Positions 18,879 through 25,386 of a stretch of DNA of 25,386 bases are shown here, piece after piece (position 1 is the first letter of the stretch; each line of letters opens with the position of its first letter). The notes beneath the pieces are model-generated. The model was given only the letters and a program-made list of their open reading frames with translations, searched no databases and was not told where the DNA came from. Origin of the DNA: a virus (taxonomy: Duplodnaviria > Heunggongvirae > Uroviricota > Caudoviricetes); the IMG/VR virus record IMGVR_UViG_2563366849_000003; one strand, 5' to 3'. Both the position numbers and the translations under genes were made by a program.

Positions 18879-20651
18879 ATGACCATCACCACAGACACCA
18901 CTCTTTTACACGACCCGCGTCGTCAGGCGGCGCTGCTGTACTGGCAGGGGTTTTCCGTGCCGCAGATTGCCGCCATGTTGCAGATGAAACGCCCGACGGT
19001 GCAGAGCTGGAAACAGCGCGACGGCTGGGACAGCGTTGCCCCCATCAGCCGTGTCGAAATGAGTCTGGAAGCGCGGCTGACCCAGCTCATCATCAAACCG
19101 CAGAAAACCGGCGGTGACTTCAAGGAAATTGACCTGCTCGGACGCCAGATTGAACGACTGGCACGGGTCAACCGTTACAGTCAGACCGGCAACGAGGCAG
19201 ACCTTAATCCGAACGTCGCTAACCGCAACAAAGGCGGGCGTCGCAAACCGAAAAAGAATTTTTTCAGTGACGAGGCCATCGAAAAGCTGGAGCAGATTTT
19301 CTTTGAGCAGTCTTTCGAATATCAGTTGCACTGGTATCGCGCCGGGCTTGAGCACCGCATCCGCGATATCCTGAAATCCCGCCAGATTGGCGCAACGTTT
19401 TATTTTTCCCGCGAGGCGCTGCTGCGCGCCCTGAAAACCGGCCATAACCAGATTTTTCTGTCGGCCAGTAAAACGCAGGCGTATGTGTTCCGTGAATACA
19501 TCATCGCCTTTGCCCGGCTGGTTGACGTTGACCTGACCGGTGACCCGATTGTCCTGGGCAATAACGGCGCAAAACTGATTTTTCTCGGCACCAACTCCAA
19601 CACCGCACAGAGCCATAACGGCGACCTGTACGTCGACGAGATTTTCTGGATCCCGAATTTTCAGGTACTGCGTAAGGTGGCATCAGGTATGGCCTCACAG
19701 AGTCACCTGCGCTCGACCTATTTCTCCACCCCGTCCACGCTGGCGCACGACGCCTACCCGTTCTGGTCCGGTGAACTGTTTAACCGGGGACGCGCCAGCG
19801 CCGCCGAACGCGTGGAAATCGACGTCAGTCATAACGCCCTTGCCGGTGGGCTTCTCTGTGCGGACGGCCAGTGGCGGCAGATTGTCACCATTGAGGACGC
19901 CCTGAAAGGCGGCTGCACATTGTTCGACATTGAGCAGCTTAAACGCGAAAACAGCGCCGACGATTTTAAAAACCTGTTCATGTGTGAATTTGTTGACGAC
20001 AAGGCGTCGGTGTTCCCGTTCGAGGAGCTGCAACGCTGCATGATCGACACGCTGGAAGAATGGGAAGACTATGCGCCGTTTGCCGCAAATCCGTTCGGCT
20101 CACGTCCGGTATGGATTGGTTACGACCCGTCACACCGTGGCGACAGCGCCGGATGTGTGGTACTGGCACCGCCGGTGGTGGCCGGTGGCAAATTCAGAAT
20201 ACTTGAGCGTCACCAGTGGAAAGGCATGGACTTTGCCACTCAGGCTGAATCCATCCGCAAACTCACCGAAAAATATAACGTCGAATACATCGGTATTGAT
20301 GCCACCGGCCTCGGTGTCGGCGTGTTCCAGCTCGTGCGCTCGTTCTATCCCGCCGCGCGCGATATCCGCTACACGCCGGAAATGAAAACCGCAATGGTGC
20401 TCAAGGCAAAAGACGTTATCCGCCGTGGCTGTCTGGAATATGACGTCAGCGCCACCGACATCACCAGCTCGTTTATGGCTATCCGCAAGACCATGACCAG
20501 CAGCGGACGCAGTGCCACCTATGAGGCCAGCCGCAGCGAGGAAGCCAGCCACGCCGACCTCGCCTGGGCGACCATGCACGCCCTGTTAAATGAGCCACTC
20601 ACCGCCGGTATCAGCACCCCGCTGACATCCACCATTCTGGAGTTTTACTGA
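18879..20651 (+). CDS. P: Terminase large (ATPase) subunit (P2 gpP)
   Basis: Start placed at MTITTDTTLLHD (18879) to give 590 aa, the P2 gpP size; the stop overlaps the Q start (ATGA). Confidence 0.88.
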   Translation: MTITTDTTLLHDPRRQAALLYWQGFSVPQIAAMLQMKRPTVQSWKQRDGWDSVAPISRVEMSLEARLTQLIIKPQKTGGDFKEIDLLGRQIERLARVNRYSQTGNEADLNPNVANRNKGGRRKPKKNFFSDEAIEKLEQIFFEQSFEYQLHWYRAGLEHRIRDILKSRQIGATFYFSREALLRALKTGHNQIFLSASKTQAYVFREYIIAFARLVDVDLTGDPIVLGNNGAKLIFLGTNSNTAQSHNGDLYVDEIFWIPNFQVLRKVASGMASQSHLRSTYFSTPSTLAHDAYPFWSGELFNRGRASAAERVEIDVSHNALAGGLLCADGQWRQIVTIEDALKGGCTLFDIEQLKRENSADDFKNLFMCEFVDDKASVFPFEELQRCMIDTLEEWEDYAPFAANPFGSRPVWIGYDPSHRGDSAGCVVLAPPVVAGGKFRILERHQWKGMDFATQAESIRKLTEKYNVEYIGIDATGLGVGVFQLVRSFYPAARDIRYTPEMKTAMVLKAKDVIRRGCLEYDVSATDITSSFMAIRKTMTSSGRSATYEASRSEEASHADLAWATMHALLNEPLTAGISTPLTSTILEFY

Positions 20652-21679
20652 TGAGCAAGAAAAAAGGGAAAACACCGCAACCTGCGGCAAAAAAAATGAC
20701 CGCCAGCGCCCCGAAAATGGAGGCATTCACCTTTGGTGAGCCGGTGCCGGTACTCGACCGGCGTGACATTCTGGATTACGTCGAGTGCATCAGTAACGGC
20801 AGATGGTATGAGCCACCGGTCAGCTTTACCGGTCTGGCGAAAAGCCTGCGTGCTGCCGTGCATCACAGCTCACCGATTTACGTCAAACGTAATATTCTGG
20901 CTTCAACGTTTATCCCGCATCCGTGGCTTTCCCAGCAGGATTTCAGCCGCTTTGTACTGGATTTTCTGGTGTTCGGTAATGCGTTTCTGGAAAAGCGTTA
21001 CAGCACCACCGGTAAGGTCATCAGACTGGAAACCTCACCGGCAAAATATACCCGCCGTGGCGTGGAGGAGGATGTTTACTGGTGGGTGCCGTCCTTCAAC
21101 GAGCCGACACCCTTCGCGCCCGGCTCCGTGTTTCACCTGCTGGAGCCGGATATCAATCAGGAGCTGTACGGCCTGCCGGAATATCTCAGCGCCCTTAACT
21201 CTGCCTGGCTGAATGAGTCGGCCACGCTGTTCCGCCGCAAGTATTACGAAAACGGCGCTCATGCCGGATACATCATGTACGTCACTGATGCCGTGCAGGA
21301 TCGCAACGATATCGAAATGCTTCGCGAAAACATGGTCAAGTCGAAAGGCCGCAACAACTTTAAAAACCTGTTTCTCTATGCCCCACAGGGGAAAGCCGAC
21401 GGCATCAAAATTATCCCCCTCAGTGAAGTGGCGACGAAGGACGATTTTTTTAATATCAAAAAAGCCAGCGCCGCTGACCTGCTGGACGCGCACCGCATCC
21501 CCTTTCAGTTGATGGGCGGCAAGCCGGAGAACGTCGGGTCGCTGGGTGATATTGAGAAAGTGGCAAAGGTCTTTGTCCGCAATGAGCTTATCCCGCTACA
21601 GGACAGGATCCGCGAGATAAACGGCTGGCTCAGCGCCGAAGTTATTCAATTCAAAAATTACTCTTTAGACGATAATTAA
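20651..21679 (+). CDS. Q: Portal protein (P2 gpQ)
   Basis: 342-aa ORF (P2 gpQ is about 344 aa), translationally coupled to P. Confidence 0.88.
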   Translation: MSKKKGKTPQPAAKKMTASAPKMEAFTFGEPVPVLDRRDILDYVECISNGRWYEPPVSFTGLAKSLRAAVHHSSPIYVKRNILASTFIPHPWLSQQDFSRFVLDFLVFGNAFLEKRYSTTGKVIRLETSPAKYTRRGVEEDVYWWVPSFNEPTPFAPGSVFHLLEPDINQELYGLPEYLSALNSAWLNESATLFRRKYYENGAHAGYIMYVTDAVQDRNDIEMLRENMVKSKGRNNFKNLFLYAPQGKADGIKIIPLSEVATKDDFFNIKKASAADLLDAHRIPFQLMGGKPENVGSLGDIEKVAKVFVRNELIPLQDRIREINGWLSAEVIQFKNYSLDDN

Positions 21680-21698
21680 CCCAATATTTAGATGATAA

Positions 21699-21724
21699 TT
21701 AGCCCTAGCATTTGCCGGGGCTAA
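21699..21724. terminator. Hairpin (TTAGCCC-loop-GGGCTAA) between convergent Q and the cargo operon; probable bidirectional terminator
   Basis: 7-bp stem with an 11-nt loop, with a T-run on the plus side (GGATTTTATTTTTT) and an AT-rich stretch on the minus side. Confidence 0.45.
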
Positions 21725-21737
21725 TAATTGCAGGATT

Positions 21738-22310
21738 TTATTTTTTCATATTGTATATAAAGTCACAAATATGCACCAGTGATAATCTGTTATAGTTTTC
21801 CAATGTAAACACAGGATAATTATAGCAAATTTCAGGAGGAGGCAATTGCGAGCGAACAGTTGTTTTTTTAGCTGATTGCTGCCTCCTCGATAATTTACTT
21901 ATTACACCAATGTAATCCACTTTTCTTGACAAATGCCCATGTAAATTCAATACAGAATATAGCCACTTACAAAAATGAATGCCAGTAACTACCTGTTTAG
22001 CCGCACCATTTGAGTTATAAGATTTGAGATCTATTACGATAAAATAATCTACGTCTTTGTGCGACGTAACAAAAATTCCATCACAAACAGAGCATACTCC
22101 TGGTAAAGCAGAAGATTTTAAAAATTTCCAGACTGGTTTAGAAATACTATTAGAATCTAGCGAAAATCCATAGATACCATTTCCGTTTACCAGTAATTTT
22201 TTATTTGTAGCACCTGGGTTCTCTTCGCATACAACCCAGCATTCCTGCTCTCGCATTAATTGAAATGTAGGATCGATGCAACTTTGTATTACATTGATAA
22301 TATTACTCAT
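21738..22310 (-). CDS. Hypothetical Cys/His-rich protein (190 aa), partner of the upstream ATPase; candidate effector
   Basis: The start ATG (22310..22308) overlaps the last codons of the ATPase gene (GATGAGTAA), indicating translational coupling. AT-rich. Contains CxxxC (res 24-28), CxxC (73-76), EE (29-30) and DVD (86-88) motifs. No family confidently recognised. Confidence 0.6.
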   Translation of the reverse strand: MSNIINVIQSCIDPTFQLMREQECWVVCEENPGATNKKLLVNGNGIYGFSLDSNSISKPVWKFLKSSALPGVCSVCDGIFVTSHKDVDYFIVIDLKSYNSNGAAKQVVTGIHFCKWLYSVLNLHGHLSRKVDYIGVISKLSRRQQSAKKTTVRSQLPPPEICYNYPVFTLENYNRLSLVHICDFIYNMKK

Positions 22311-23736
22311 CTACATCCTCACTATCAGAGGCATTCTCCACCAAGGAGTAATATATTTCATCATTATCGTCATTAATGGCATTAATTACTTCATCAAAAG
22401 TTACAGCATTAATCCCTTCATTTGACTTCTGCATTTCATTGACTGAGCCATTATCAAATAGATACGCAGCGACTAGGTTAGAGTCTAAAATTGAGTCGAT
22501 GCTAATCCCTTGCTTCTGCATGATAGCGTTTCGTTTTTCAATCATATTTTCAGAAACGCCATGCAACATAATCAAGCTATTGATTTCTTTCACAAAATAA
22601 TCACTGTGAGTACTAACAATAACCCGAATACCAGAGTTAACTAGCTTTGCTAAAAATCTTGCAATTACTCGCTGATTTGACGGGTGTAAATTTAACTCGG
22701 GTTCGTCAATCATTAAAATATCACCAGTTTTTGCTTGGTGCTCTAAATAAAACCACAGGCCAAACAAACTTTTAACAGTGGATGACGATAAATGAAGTTC
22801 AATTTTACTTGCAGGTGTCTTACCTTTCTTATACGTTGAAAAATAAATCTGCCCTTCAGGATCAACTGAATATTTTCCTGAAATTATTTTTTTTACTTCT
22901 TCTGCTAATTTATGAAATTGGCCATTTTTATTTTTCCTATTAACCTTAATTTCATTAAGCCAGTCTATGTAATTTGCTATAGGAGCAGAATACTTAGACT
23001 TCATTACATCCATTAATAGTGAGTTCAGATCGAACTGTTCTTTTGAGGCGTGGTGCAATAACGCAGTTCTTCTGGAACTTAATTCATTGAAAAAAAGGTG
23101 CAAGCCATTTCTTTCTGCGGGAATTAAAAATGCTGGGCTTTCATCATACTCTATCTTTAATAACTGACTTAGAGTTAAGTTTATAAACCCATCAATTCTG
23201 GGGAAAGCAGAATCTAGCAGCGTCATTTGTATGATATTGCTATTTTTATCTTTGGATAATAGCATTACTTCTTTTTTGCCGGTTCCTATGACGAGGCTAA
23301 CATCCAATTTTTTTTCATAAACACTTGATACTAATGATTCTTCATCTATAACCCAGTCAAATGTTGAATTAGAAAAAATTTCCTTATCATTAGTGTTGAA
23401 TACATCTTTAAGCATTAAAGATGAATCTTTATTAAATTCTCTTTTGATTAACGTAAAATTATCTTTTATCCACTCAATTACATCTAATTCAAACTTACCA
23501 TTTTCACGAAGAGTTTTGGCAAAATTTGCAACTTGAGGCAATTTTAAAGATGGTGATGGCATATTTAGGAAGCCATATAACCCATACATAACCCATGTTT
23601 TACCAGTATTATTTTTTCCGCATAAAAGCGTTAAAGGTTTTGCATTAATTTCTCCTGTAGAGATACACCCAATGTTTTTAAATGAAAATCTCCATGATGC
23701 TAATTTTTTTACGTTAATTTCGCTTTGCTTTTTCAT
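22303..23736 (-). CDS. ABC/OLD-type P-loop ATPase (AAA_15/AAA_21-like), 477 aa; candidate anti-phage defence ATPase
   Basis: Walker A GKNNTGKT (res 40-47), signature-like LSSSTVKS (316-323), Walker B/D-loop DILMIDEPELNLHP (339-352), H-loop STHS (375-378), acidic C-terminal tail; AAGGAA Shine-Dalgarno; AT-rich. Confidence 0.7.
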   Translation of the reverse strand: MKKQSEINVKKLASWRFSFKNIGCISTGEINAKPLTLLCGKNNTGKTWVMYGLYGFLNMPSPSLKLPQVANFAKTLRENGKFELDVIEWIKDNFTLIKREFNKDSSLMLKDVFNTNDKEIFSNSTFDWVIDEESLVSSVYEKKLDVSLVIGTGKKEVMLLSKDKNSNIIQMTLLDSAFPRIDGFINLTLSQLLKIEYDESPAFLIPAERNGLHLFFNELSSRRTALLHHASKEQFDLNSLLMDVMKSKYSAPIANYIDWLNEIKVNRKNKNGQFHKLAEEVKKIISGKYSVDPEGQIYFSTYKKGKTPASKIELHLSSSTVKSLFGLWFYLEHQAKTGDILMIDEPELNLHPSNQRVIARFLAKLVNSGIRVIVSTHSDYFVKEINSLIMLHGVSENMIEKRNAIMQKQGISIDSILDSNLVAAYLFDNGSVNEMQKSNEGINAVTFDEVINAINDDNDEIYYSLVENASDSEDVDE

Positions 23737-23987
23737 TGAGTTTCCTTAATCAATTACATACGAACTGATCAAACCATTGATCGTGTTGAAAAGTCAATAC
23801 TATACTAAATAACCACGAAGAATAGTGCTTCATTTTCCGTCAGTCCTAATAGGTTAAGATATATGGACTGTTTTCTCAAACTTGTTGCGCTCTGCTGAAT
23901 CTCTCGTATGTTACTTCAATATGATGAACATCCTAACTCTGAAACGGTAAGTCTATCGGTATTACATTTTCACATTGCATGAGCGCG

Positions 23988-24006
23988 GTGCTTTCCCCGC
24001 CTCGCC
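23988..24006 (-). other. P2 cos site (19-nt cohesive-end sequence GGCGAGGCGGGGAAAGCAC on the minus strand)
   Basis: Plus-strand GTGCTTTCCCCGCCTCGCC is the exact reverse complement of the P2 cohesive-end sequence as I recall it; it sits in the expected position between Q and the early region. Confidence 0.8.
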
Positions 24007-24288
24007 CGCCCGCTTCACGGGGCGGTTTTAATGCAGTTGCATAGATACTATGGATCCGCACCAGTCCTGACCGCACGCAGCCTGAACGGACATCCCCAGC
24101 GCATGCAAAAACATTCACTTGTTGCATGCATAGCTTTTTAAGTACGCCATACCGCAACTGTACATTTTTAAGCAATTGGCAACTTTAAAAAATTTACATT
24201 GCTTTCAAGACCTTATCATCCGTAGTCTCTGTTTTTTACTTTGAGCTACATCAATAAAATCTCAAACATGTTTAATGCAAAGCCCTTG

Positions 24289-24345
24289 TTACACAACATA
24301 GAATGTATGTCTAGAAACAACGACATACTATATGTTGTGTTTTTC
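24289..24345 (+). terminator. Long imperfect hairpin (ACACAACATA ... TATGTTGTGT) followed by TTTTT; possible terminator or operator
   Basis: 10-bp perfect inverted repeat (24291..24300 and 24331..24340), extended by partial pairing of the inner arms, followed by a T-run on the plus strand. Confidence 0.4.
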
Positions 24346-24406
24346 CGGCTCTCTGTTCGGTGATATGCCAAATCACTTTGCGTTTAAACAGAGCATTATT
24401 TCAGGG

Positions 24407-24421
24407 CAAGACTTCGCTCAA
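24407..24421. repeat. 15-bp direct repeat CAAGACTTCGCTCAA, copy 1
   Basis: Exact copy of the 15-mer also present at 24671..24685; the two copies flank the small ORF and its terminator. Confidence 0.6.
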
Positions 24422-24484
24422 AAGTCATTCCACCTAACAAGCGCATATACCGGTGGAAGTTGCCCTCTACTTACAGGAGGCAAT

Positions 24485-24598
24485 ATGAAGAAATGCTATT
24501 ACTGCATTCTCGTTCTGGCCCTCTTTGGCTATCCAAACGGTAGTCCGAGTGGTTTGTCAGTAAACGTCAGTAATATCAATGTCAGCATTATGCTTTAA
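24485..24598 (+). CDS. Candidate small hydrophobic peptide (37 aa)
   Basis: MKKCYYCILVLALFGYPNGSPSGLSVNVSNINVSIML; AGGAGG Shine-Dalgarno 4 nt upstream of the ATG; a strong intrinsic terminator follows at 24611..24640. Confidence 0.35.
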   Translation: MKKCYYCILVLALFGYPNGSPSGLSVNVSNINVSIML

Positions 24599-24610
24599 TA
24601 TGCTTCAAAC

Positions 24611-24640
24611 AAAAAAACCACCTGCCAGGGTGGTTTTTTT
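24611..24640 (+). terminator. Intrinsic terminator (CCACC-TGCCAG-GGTGG plus T7), possibly bidirectional
   Basis: A-run, then a 5-bp GC stem, then TTTTTTT. Confidence 0.55.
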
Positions 24641-24670
24641 GCGCCCATCATCAATACGATGAAAGACTGA

Positions 24671-24685
24671 CAAGACTTCGCTCAA
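24671..24685. repeat. 15-bp direct repeat CAAGACTTCGCTCAA, copy 2
   Basis: Exact copy of the 15-mer at 24407..24421. Confidence 0.6.
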
Positions 24686-24900
24686 GACGAATTATGCGTC
24701 GACATAAGGTTACCCGCAATGATTTTATTAGACTAAATGGATGGCCTTTTATGACCCGGATCAAACGGCTGTCCTTACCGACATGCTAGTCACTCAATAG
24801 CATTTAGCCTTCTAATTCAGCATGCTATTGACCTTCTGCTGCCCCATAACTGCTCCGCATAAGCCATTCAATGCCATATCAAATCACGTTGTGTTTTTAC

Positions 24901-25386
24901 TCAAATGGGTAACGAGAACCCCGGCCACACATCAGCGACCAGATACGTGAATTTTTTTCCGTCATAATTTACGGTTGCTCCACGCGCCAGCGCCTCAAGT
25001 TCCCATCGCTGAGGCCAGATGCCGTTCTGAGCAAGGTCAACACGGATACGGGTAATTTGCATACGCTCCGACCGGGTCAGCCTGGCCGATGGCGCTATTT
25101 CATTCGGTTTTAACGGGCTTCCGTTTCTTTGCTGACGGTTTGGTGTTCTCAGGCCGTGTTTTAATGCGCCCCTGAGCGCCCTCACGACCTCCGGGTCATT
25201 CCATTCGATAACACCGTCATCAACCAGATTAAGCACGGCTGCGGCGCGCTCAGAAGGTGTGGGAGCCGGTAACGAAGTATCACCACCGGTGAGCTTTCCA
25301 CAGTTATTGACAGGACTCCGAGGCGCGGCGATGCCGCTTTTTAAAGTCAAAGGCTCAACGACCGGCACTTTCGGCACAATGCGCCA
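24901..25386 (-). CDS. 3' part of a phage early-region gene (possibly the C-terminus of replication protein A or a neighbouring ORF); the 5' end lies beyond the window
   Basis: Minus-strand ORF open to the window edge, with phage-backbone-like GC content and the orientation expected for P2 early genes. No specific identification possible. Confidence 0.4.
   Translation of the reverse strand, partial: WRIVPKVPVVEPLTLKSGIAAPRSPVNNCGKLTGGDTSLPAPTPSERAAAVLNLVDDGVIEWNDPEVVRALRGALKHGLRTPNRQQRNGSPLKPNEIAPSARLTRSERMQITRIRVDLAQNGIWPQRWELEALARGATVNYDGKKFTYLVADVWPGFSLPI

Follow-up and report, generated by a model that had tools for sequence, protein, structure and literature searches.

A probable PD-T4-4-family anti-phage cargo between the portal gene and cos of a P2-like prophage

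The DNA stretch considered here, the 25,386 nucleotides of the IMG/VR virus record IMGVR_UViG_2563366849_000003 (Duplodnaviria; Heunggongvirae; Uroviricota; Caudoviricetes; hereafter the window), contains a 2.3 kb AT-rich cargo in a P2-like prophage, where it separates the portal gene Q from cos. It is highly likely that this segment is lysogenic-conversion cargo of the prophage at the gpA-cos-gpQ hotspot and that it encodes an anti-phage system of the PD-T4-4 family, made up of an ATPase (gene A) and a small partner (gene B). The two genes themselves are very probably an anti-phage system. An initial annotation, made from the sequence alone, had proposed the pair as a candidate novel defence system. 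This proposal fails because both proteins give confident matches to PADLOC profiles of PD-T4-4, which is already named; judged by those profiles, the pair belongs to an already known and tested family and is not a new system.

PD-T4-4 emerged from the functional selection of Vassallo et al. (2022), as clone T4-28 from strain ECOR58; it carries the description 'ATPase, nuclease', and its defence against T4 was validated with the native promoter in place (PMC9519451). In later papers, PD-T4-4_A is an ABC ATPase and PD-T4-4_B a PD-(D/E)xK nuclease.

Results

The A and B genes

The pair comprises the following features.

22303..23736, minus strand: gene A, PD-T4-4_A, an ABC/OLD-type ATPase of 477 amino acids (aa), from the open reading frame (ORF) list and profiles.
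21738..22310, minus strand: gene B, PD-T4-4_B, a divergent PD-(D/E)xK nuclease and presumed effector of 190 aa, from the ORF list and a profile.
22303..22310, minus strand: 8-nt overlap of the A stop and the B start, octamer ATGAGTAA, from the junction sequence.

The coordinates of both genes agree with the RefSeq gene calls in Escherichia coli W. As in PD-T4-4, the two genes are neighbours in the same orientation and A precedes B, and the overlapping layout of 477 and 190 aa given in the initial annotation was borne out, the 8-nt overlap being consistent with translational coupling. When compared with the 88%-identical allele of UTAK-5, the ratio of non-synonymous to synonymous substitution rates (dN/dS) was 0.055 for A and 0.28 for B. 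Both are therefore real genes under purifying selection, and B evolves faster.

Gene A is an OLD/ABC-type ATPase

The four motifs quoted in the initial annotation were all located in A: the Walker A motif GKNNTGKT (residues 40-47, with K46), the signature-like motif LSSSTVKS (residues 316-323), the Walker B motif DILMIDEPELNLHP (residues 339-352, with D344/E345) and the H-loop STHS (residues 375-378, with H377). The nucleotide-binding motifs are invariant in the ATPase family alignment, whereas residues ~57-200 form a variable, poorly conserved insert. By these motifs, A can be classed as an OLD/ABC-type ATPase in which every nucleotide-binding element is intact.

The family assignment rests on PADLOC profiles, used at the level of hidden Markov models (HMMs); the ECOR58 proteins were compared by description. 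A matched the PD-T4-4_A profile PDLC04033 with E=2.1e-112 and 374.7 bits (residues 16-465 on profile positions 2-458 of 460) and the second profile PDLC04032 with E=5e-61. The next-best tier in PADLOC was the candidate family PDC-M47A (1.5e-81), followed in a lower tier by AriA (1.8e-29), Old (2e-15), PtuA (4e-11) and GajA (3e-10). In Pfam, A matched AAA_15 (6e-26) and AAA_21 (8e-17), and in NCBIfam there were only ABC matches below threshold. The best match among PDB sequences was the OLD family nuclease 6p74 (E=1e-9), and PtuA structures were also matched. The A family is large: of the 8000 candidates scored, 2506 clusters reached E<=1e-10, and among the matches listed were many full-length relatives of 44-52% identity from many Proteobacteria.

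The secondary matches of A to AriA, Old, PtuA and GajA speak for the idea that the pair is a variant of PARIS, Septu or Gabija, with a Toprim, HNH or helicase partner, as does the frequency of PARIS in the gpA-cos-gpQ hotspot (PMC9122126). However, PD-T4-4_A scores better by more than 80 orders of magnitude, the GajA profile matches are limited to the Walker B region of a 477-aa protein that lacks a Toprim domain, and B has no AriB/DUF4435, PtuB/HNH or GajB match and a predicted PD-(D/E)xK fold. We therefore give this explanation almost no credence. In the initial annotation the gene architecture had been likened to those three systems; the class of ATPase justifies the comparison, but their effectors (HNH, DUF4435 Toprim, and fused Toprim plus helicase) are absent.

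Gene B has the signature and predicted fold of a PD-(D/E)xK nuclease

The match of B to the PD-T4-4_B profile PDLC04037 (E=1.2e-15; residues 2-155 on profile positions 3-160 of 190) is weaker than that of A and leaves the last ~30 residues uncovered; a further profile, PDLC04034, was matched at E=0.0019. Searches of Pfam and NCBIfam with B gave no match, and PADLOC gave none outside PD-T4-4. A word-index search with B found nine close relatives, all enterobacterial and of at least 54% identity, and HMMER, run exhaustively over 1.84 billion cluster representatives, detected 134 relatives with E<=1e-3, for the most part stand-alone proteins of ~180-200 aa (some are shorter, and one has 1334 aa).

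Residue conservation was read from an alignment of 68 sequences of 19-79% identity. D77 and Q106 are present in all 68 and K96 in 66; position 94 is acidic throughout (E in 47 sequences, D in 21), D52 is D in 64 and E in the other four, and E29 is retained in 57. This gives E29, D52, D77, D94-x-K96 and Q106 as candidate catalytic residues, which, as aligned, make up the classical E...D...(D/E)xK...Q signature. An AlphaFold2 model built from the same alignment (predicted local distance difference test, pLDDT, 93.3; predicted template-modelling score, pTM, 0.89) replaced an earlier one built from eight sequences (pLDDT 57). In the new model, D77 starts a beta-hairpin that ends with D94-x-K96 (strands 78-84 and 87-96), and a long helix bearing Q106 (103-123) and then a fourth strand follow. 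The closest folds are McrC, BspD6I, FokI, NucS and Shedu, with moderate structural matches; the B profile found no match among PDB sequences, and Foldseek found no significant match in PDB or BFVD. The signature and the confident model together lead us to predict that B is a divergent nuclease of the restriction-endonuclease fold (PD-(D/E)xK), and is neither an HNH nor a Toprim protein. B accordingly shares with PD-T4-4_B a PD-(D/E)xK core with conserved catalytic residues.

These results also bear on whether the pair might be a novel, unclassified ATPase-plus-effector system in which B is unrelated to any named system. B does lack Pfam, NCBIfam and PDB sequence matches, has only nine close relatives by word search and resembles known structures only moderately. 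Against this, both genes match PD-T4-4 profiles, as do more distant pairs, and B has the PD-(D/E)xK constellation and the fold described in the literature for PD-T4-4_B. We consider a novel system extremely improbable, and the suggestion in the initial annotation that B may be an unclassified effector does not survive the PD-T4-4_B match, the signature and the fold.

The partner had also been called Cys/His-rich. It does hold eight Cys and five His, but the label is misleading: C76 is the only one conserved family-wide (55 of 68 sequences), and neither a metal-finger nor an HNH pattern is present. Since the Cys and His residues are not conserved, we discarded the idea of a Cys/His metal-binding effector.

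Distribution of the gene pair

Related loci were collected with the ATPase alignment as query and one genome per species. The 80 loci returned span Proteobacteria, Latescibacterota, Dehalococcoidia, Thermodesulfobacteriota, spirochaetes and cyanobacteria. An HMM made from the B alignment detected a B-family ORF directly 3' of A, in the same orientation, at 71 of the 78 loci for which downstream sequence exists, mostly at a spacing of -13 to +18 nt. In Aeromonas, Acinetobacter and a Tenderia metagenome-assembled genome (MAG), for example, the ATPase is followed by a gene for 183-187 aa without a Pfam match; each of these pairs matches both PD-T4-4 profiles and is flanked by unrelated housekeeping genes.

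Seven PD-T4-4_A-type ATPases have no downstream B-family gene (loci L035, L039, L046, L070, L074, L081 and L085). Methyltransferase or restriction-modification-like proteins lie downstream at L046, L074 and L081, and at L039 a 445-aa ORF overlaps the end of the ATPase; these other large ORFs suggest that partners are swapped or that the ATPase is embedded in other systems. Across loci L033-L088 the ATPases fall into size classes of ~465-480 aa, the type found in the window, and ~380-410 aa, found in many MAG loci. As a B-family gene follows both classes, a variable insert region probably accounts for the difference in size.

Within E. coli, the 2.3-kb segment is present in 19 of 5426 complete genomes, always on the chromosome and at the P2 hotspot, with 16 carriers at >=99% identity and three at ~87%; it was not found in deposited phage genomes. 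A sensitive blastn search of the complete E. coli genomes returned the same 19 loci only, and the ECOR58 reference pair was not among them; nor was it among the 13 proteins found by a word-index search with the deep B alignment. Among the carriers are E. coli W and its derivatives. Two assemblies named 'DH5alpha' (NZ_CP026085.1 and NZ_CM135829.1; 4.83 Mb) also carry the prophage cargo, at 99.8% identity, the same value as in E. coli W, LY180 and KO11FL. The K-12 strain DH5alpha is not expected to carry a P2 prophage, and these two records may therefore be mislabelled W-lineage strains.

The locus and its boundaries

Both E. coli W and UTAK-5 carry the pair in a complete P2-like prophage beside yegR, between the portal and replication endonuclease genes. 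The features that bound the cargo, or lie around the two genes, are listed below.

21664..23982, no strand assigned: AT-rich cargo segment without P2 counterpart (GC content and alignment to the P2 Q-cos interval).
20651..21679, plus strand: portal gene Q, left flank, convergent with B (P2 Q 97.7% identical over 20651-21631).
23988..24006, no strand assigned: P2-type cos, cohesive-end sequence and right cargo boundary (exact match to the reverse complement of GGCGAGGCGGGGAAAGCAC).
23742..23797, minus strand: candidate expression signals of A (relaxed hexamer search and upstream sequence).
21694..21729, no strand assigned: hairpin between the convergent Q and B (folding at -15.6 and -16.4 kcal/mol on the two strands, z ~ -1.9).

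The AT-rich insertion of 2.3 kb described in the initial annotation was confirmed: the GC content of 21680-23987 is 33.4%, compared with 53.6% in the 21.7 kb upstream, and the gap from Q to cos is 2308 nt in the window and 167 nt in P2. In P2 (NC_001895), cosL occupies positions 1-19, the terminator tQ lies at 160-181 and the Q stop at 187. Window positions 23988-24006 correspond in the alignment to the annotated cosL of P2 (coordinates 1-19). When the P2 Q-cos interval was aligned to the window, there was ~98% identity up to 21631 and weak homology to 21663, then no homology over 21664-23982, with homology returning at 23983, 5 nt before cos. The Q gene of E. coli W is annotated as a phage portal protein.

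The cargo therefore lies between replication gene A and Q, adjoining cos. A defence hotspot at gpA-cos-gpQ was described by Rousset et al., with 1,650 gene arrangements (PMC9122126), and also by Vassallo et al. (PMC9519451), so that the placement of the pair in a known P2 hotspot by the initial annotation was correct, specifically in its Q-cos part. In P2, old and tin lie in this hotspot as well, across cos from the Q side. A Scandinavium pair, 73% identical, adjoins a portal-like fragment.

At the left boundary there is a mosaic breakpoint within Q, at 21631-21679, where identity to P2 Q drops from ~98% to ~65% in the final 48 nt, while the tails encoded there are still similar (SAEVIQFKNYS and GQEVIRFKNYS). 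From this drop, cargo exchange at the hotspot seems to recombine inside the 3' end of Q.

Upstream of A, the relaxed hexamer search found a promoter-like site scoring 9 of 12, with TTGACT, an 18-nt spacer and TTTGAT (23797-23768), and a Shine-Dalgarno sequence, AAGGAA (23747-23742), lies 5 nt from the ATG. These elements might serve the expression of A. The hairpin at 21694..21729 is possibly a bidirectional terminator, to judge from its predicted folding, at the position of P2 tQ. A strict terminator scan did not call it, and for this reason its terminator function is something that we infer.

Beyond the cargo, a GC-rich hairpin with a T-run behind it (CCGCCCGCTTCACGGGGCGG TTTTAATGCA; 24006-24025, plus strand) stands directly after the cohesive-end sequence and was rated terminator-like by the terminator scan. 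Positions 24007-24900, ~0.9 kb between cos and replication gene A, contain no annotated gene in E. coli W, and P2 old, tin and orf91 are absent from them; replication gene A is on the minus strand, and its 3' end begins near 24901. An ORF of 88 aa on the plus strand (24332-24598) had no PADLOC or PHROGs match. The region 24137-24900 is 86-88% identical in other Peduovirus records and is essentially unannotated there too. An Rfam scan of 21600-25386 gave no match.

Discussion

How the pair might act can be proposed from the relatives that have been characterised. Purified EcPD-T4-4 assembles into higher-order complexes and failed to cleave any of 11 DNA substrates. In WonAB, defence is lost in ATPase-motif mutants and in nuclease mutants, overproduction of WonB is toxic in a manner that needs active WonA, deletion of wonA is not lethal, and defence is abortive, with translation arrested and DNA intact. 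Drawing on EcPD-T4-4, WonAB, PARIS and OLD, we propose a mechanism with a dimeric sensor and a licensed nuclease. A would dimerize through composite ATP sites and hold B in a complex, with coupled translation setting the stoichiometry of A to B. The variable insert of A (~57-200) would sense a cue from the infecting phage, and ATP binding or hydrolysis, through an ATP-dependent rearrangement, would then license B to cut nucleic acid and so stop the infection. The outcome would probably be abortive infection or growth arrest, protecting the lysogen population.

Two genes that overlap, one of them encoding a potentially toxic nuclease, might also form a toxin-antitoxin or addiction module that stabilizes the prophage, with B as toxin, A as its neutralizer and no sensing of phage. 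The toxicity of overproduced WonB fits such a module. However, in WonAB this toxicity needs the ATPase and is not neutralized by it, and the viability of the wonA deletion also speaks against it; furthermore, a plasmid carrying the reference PD-T4-4 confers protection against phage (PMC9519451), and the module is also found flanked by housekeeping genes, away from mobile elements. We regard an addiction module as very unlikely.

As EcPD-T4-4 cut none of the 11 DNAs, and WonB arrests translation without degrading DNA, we lean slightly towards RNA needed for translation, rather than bulk DNA, as the substrate of B. A more specific form of this idea is that the sub-clade defined by PDLC04033 and PDLC04037 differs from the ECOR58 system in being an RNA-directed abortive nuclease, which would cut tRNA or rRNA only when licensed by the ATPase after a specific phage protein has appeared; we put this forward tentatively, as the less probable outcome. 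It is likewise possible, though doubtful, that the pair is of the PD-T4-4 family but confers direct immunity, with B cutting phage DNA (for example, the modified DNA of T-even phages) and the cell surviving. Most PD-(D/E)xK domains are DNases, the folds nearest to that of B (McrC, BspD6I, FokI, NucS and Shedu) accord with this, seven of 11 putative-DNase systems gave direct immunity according to Vassallo et al., and the reference PD-T4-4 was selected on T4. The EcPD-T4-4 and WonAB results that incline us to RNA point the other way.

Several points weigh against our assignment of this cargo to PD-T4-4 defence or against the mechanism proposed for it. Our proposals on trigger, complex and substrate, and on abortive infection, are all carried over from relatives. 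PD-T4-4 has at least two sub-clades, and the ECOR58 reference could belong to one other than the PDLC04033 and PDLC04037 type. A strict promoter scan found no minus-strand promoter upstream of A, a literature search for the RefSeq accessions of the pair found no paper, and PHROGs labels both proteins (phrog_13167 and phrog_14491) as 'unknown function'. Finally, a 2026 preprint lists the PD-T4-4 effector as an HNH nuclease (bioRxiv 10.64898/2026.07.10.737580). That label conflicts with our prediction for B, and is itself contradicted by the other papers and by the fold and motif results obtained here.

As a discovery the locus carries little weight, because a standard defence annotator would label it PD-T4-4 and the hotspot is well documented. 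Its practical worth lies in being part of a native, inducible P2-like prophage of the widely used E. coli W lineage strains, where it offers a convenient model for how ABC-ATPase sensors license PD-(D/E)xK effectors. If B did prove to be an RNA-directed nuclease in a native P2 lysogen such as E. coli W, this would be the first mechanism for the PD-T4-4/WonAB family.

Comparison with known systems

The Walker B and H-loop region of A is homologous to that of P2 Old, GajA and PtuA. In Old and GajA, however, the nuclease is a fused Toprim domain, whereas in the window it is predicted to be a separate PD-(D/E)xK protein. Gabija also has GajB, a UvrD-like helicase, and there is no helicase gene in 21680-24900. 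Septu uses the HNH partner PtuB, whereas B has neither a PtuB/HNH match nor a conserved His/Cys pattern of the HNH type. PARIS is similar in being a two-gene system whose sensor is an ABC ATPase of the AAA_15/AAA_21 type (AriA profile, E=1.8e-29) and in being frequent in the same cos-proximal hotspots of P2 and P4. Its effector, AriB, is a DUF4435 Toprim protein; B has no AriB, DUF4435 or Toprim match and a predicted PD-(D/E)xK fold.

WonAB, from the WASA-1 prophage of Vibrio cholerae, is called related to PD-T4-4 by its authors, and we compared it with the window pair by description. Like the window pair, it is prophage-borne and consists of an ABC ATPase and, as its partner, a small nuclease of variant PD-(D/E)xK type. 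WonB is the smaller protein, at 16 kDa with catalytic K71, compared with 190 aa and K96 in B, and there are differences in the inserts of the ATPase and in its C-terminal extension, according to the same authors.

Another sub-clade of PD-T4-4 is found in Vibrio phage 1.202.O (NC_048066.1; Peduoviridae, Canoevirus; locus L092, 2501-4532), where the profile PDLC04032 picks up A with E=6e-185 and PDLC04035 picks up a B of 209 aa with E=6.5e-18; that pair is located elsewhere in its phage, between the genes for repressor and integrase. The PD-T4-4 system of ECOR58 (RCO57999.1 and RCO57988.1) has the same gene order, sizes and description as the window pair, an ATPase followed by a PD-(D/E)xK nuclease, in an operon of 1973 bp compared with 1999 bp in the window. 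The ECOR58 system resides in an element resembling an integrative and conjugative element (PMC9519451), whereas the window pair resides in a P2 prophage and is of the PDLC04033/PDLC04037 type, one of at least two sub-clades of the family.

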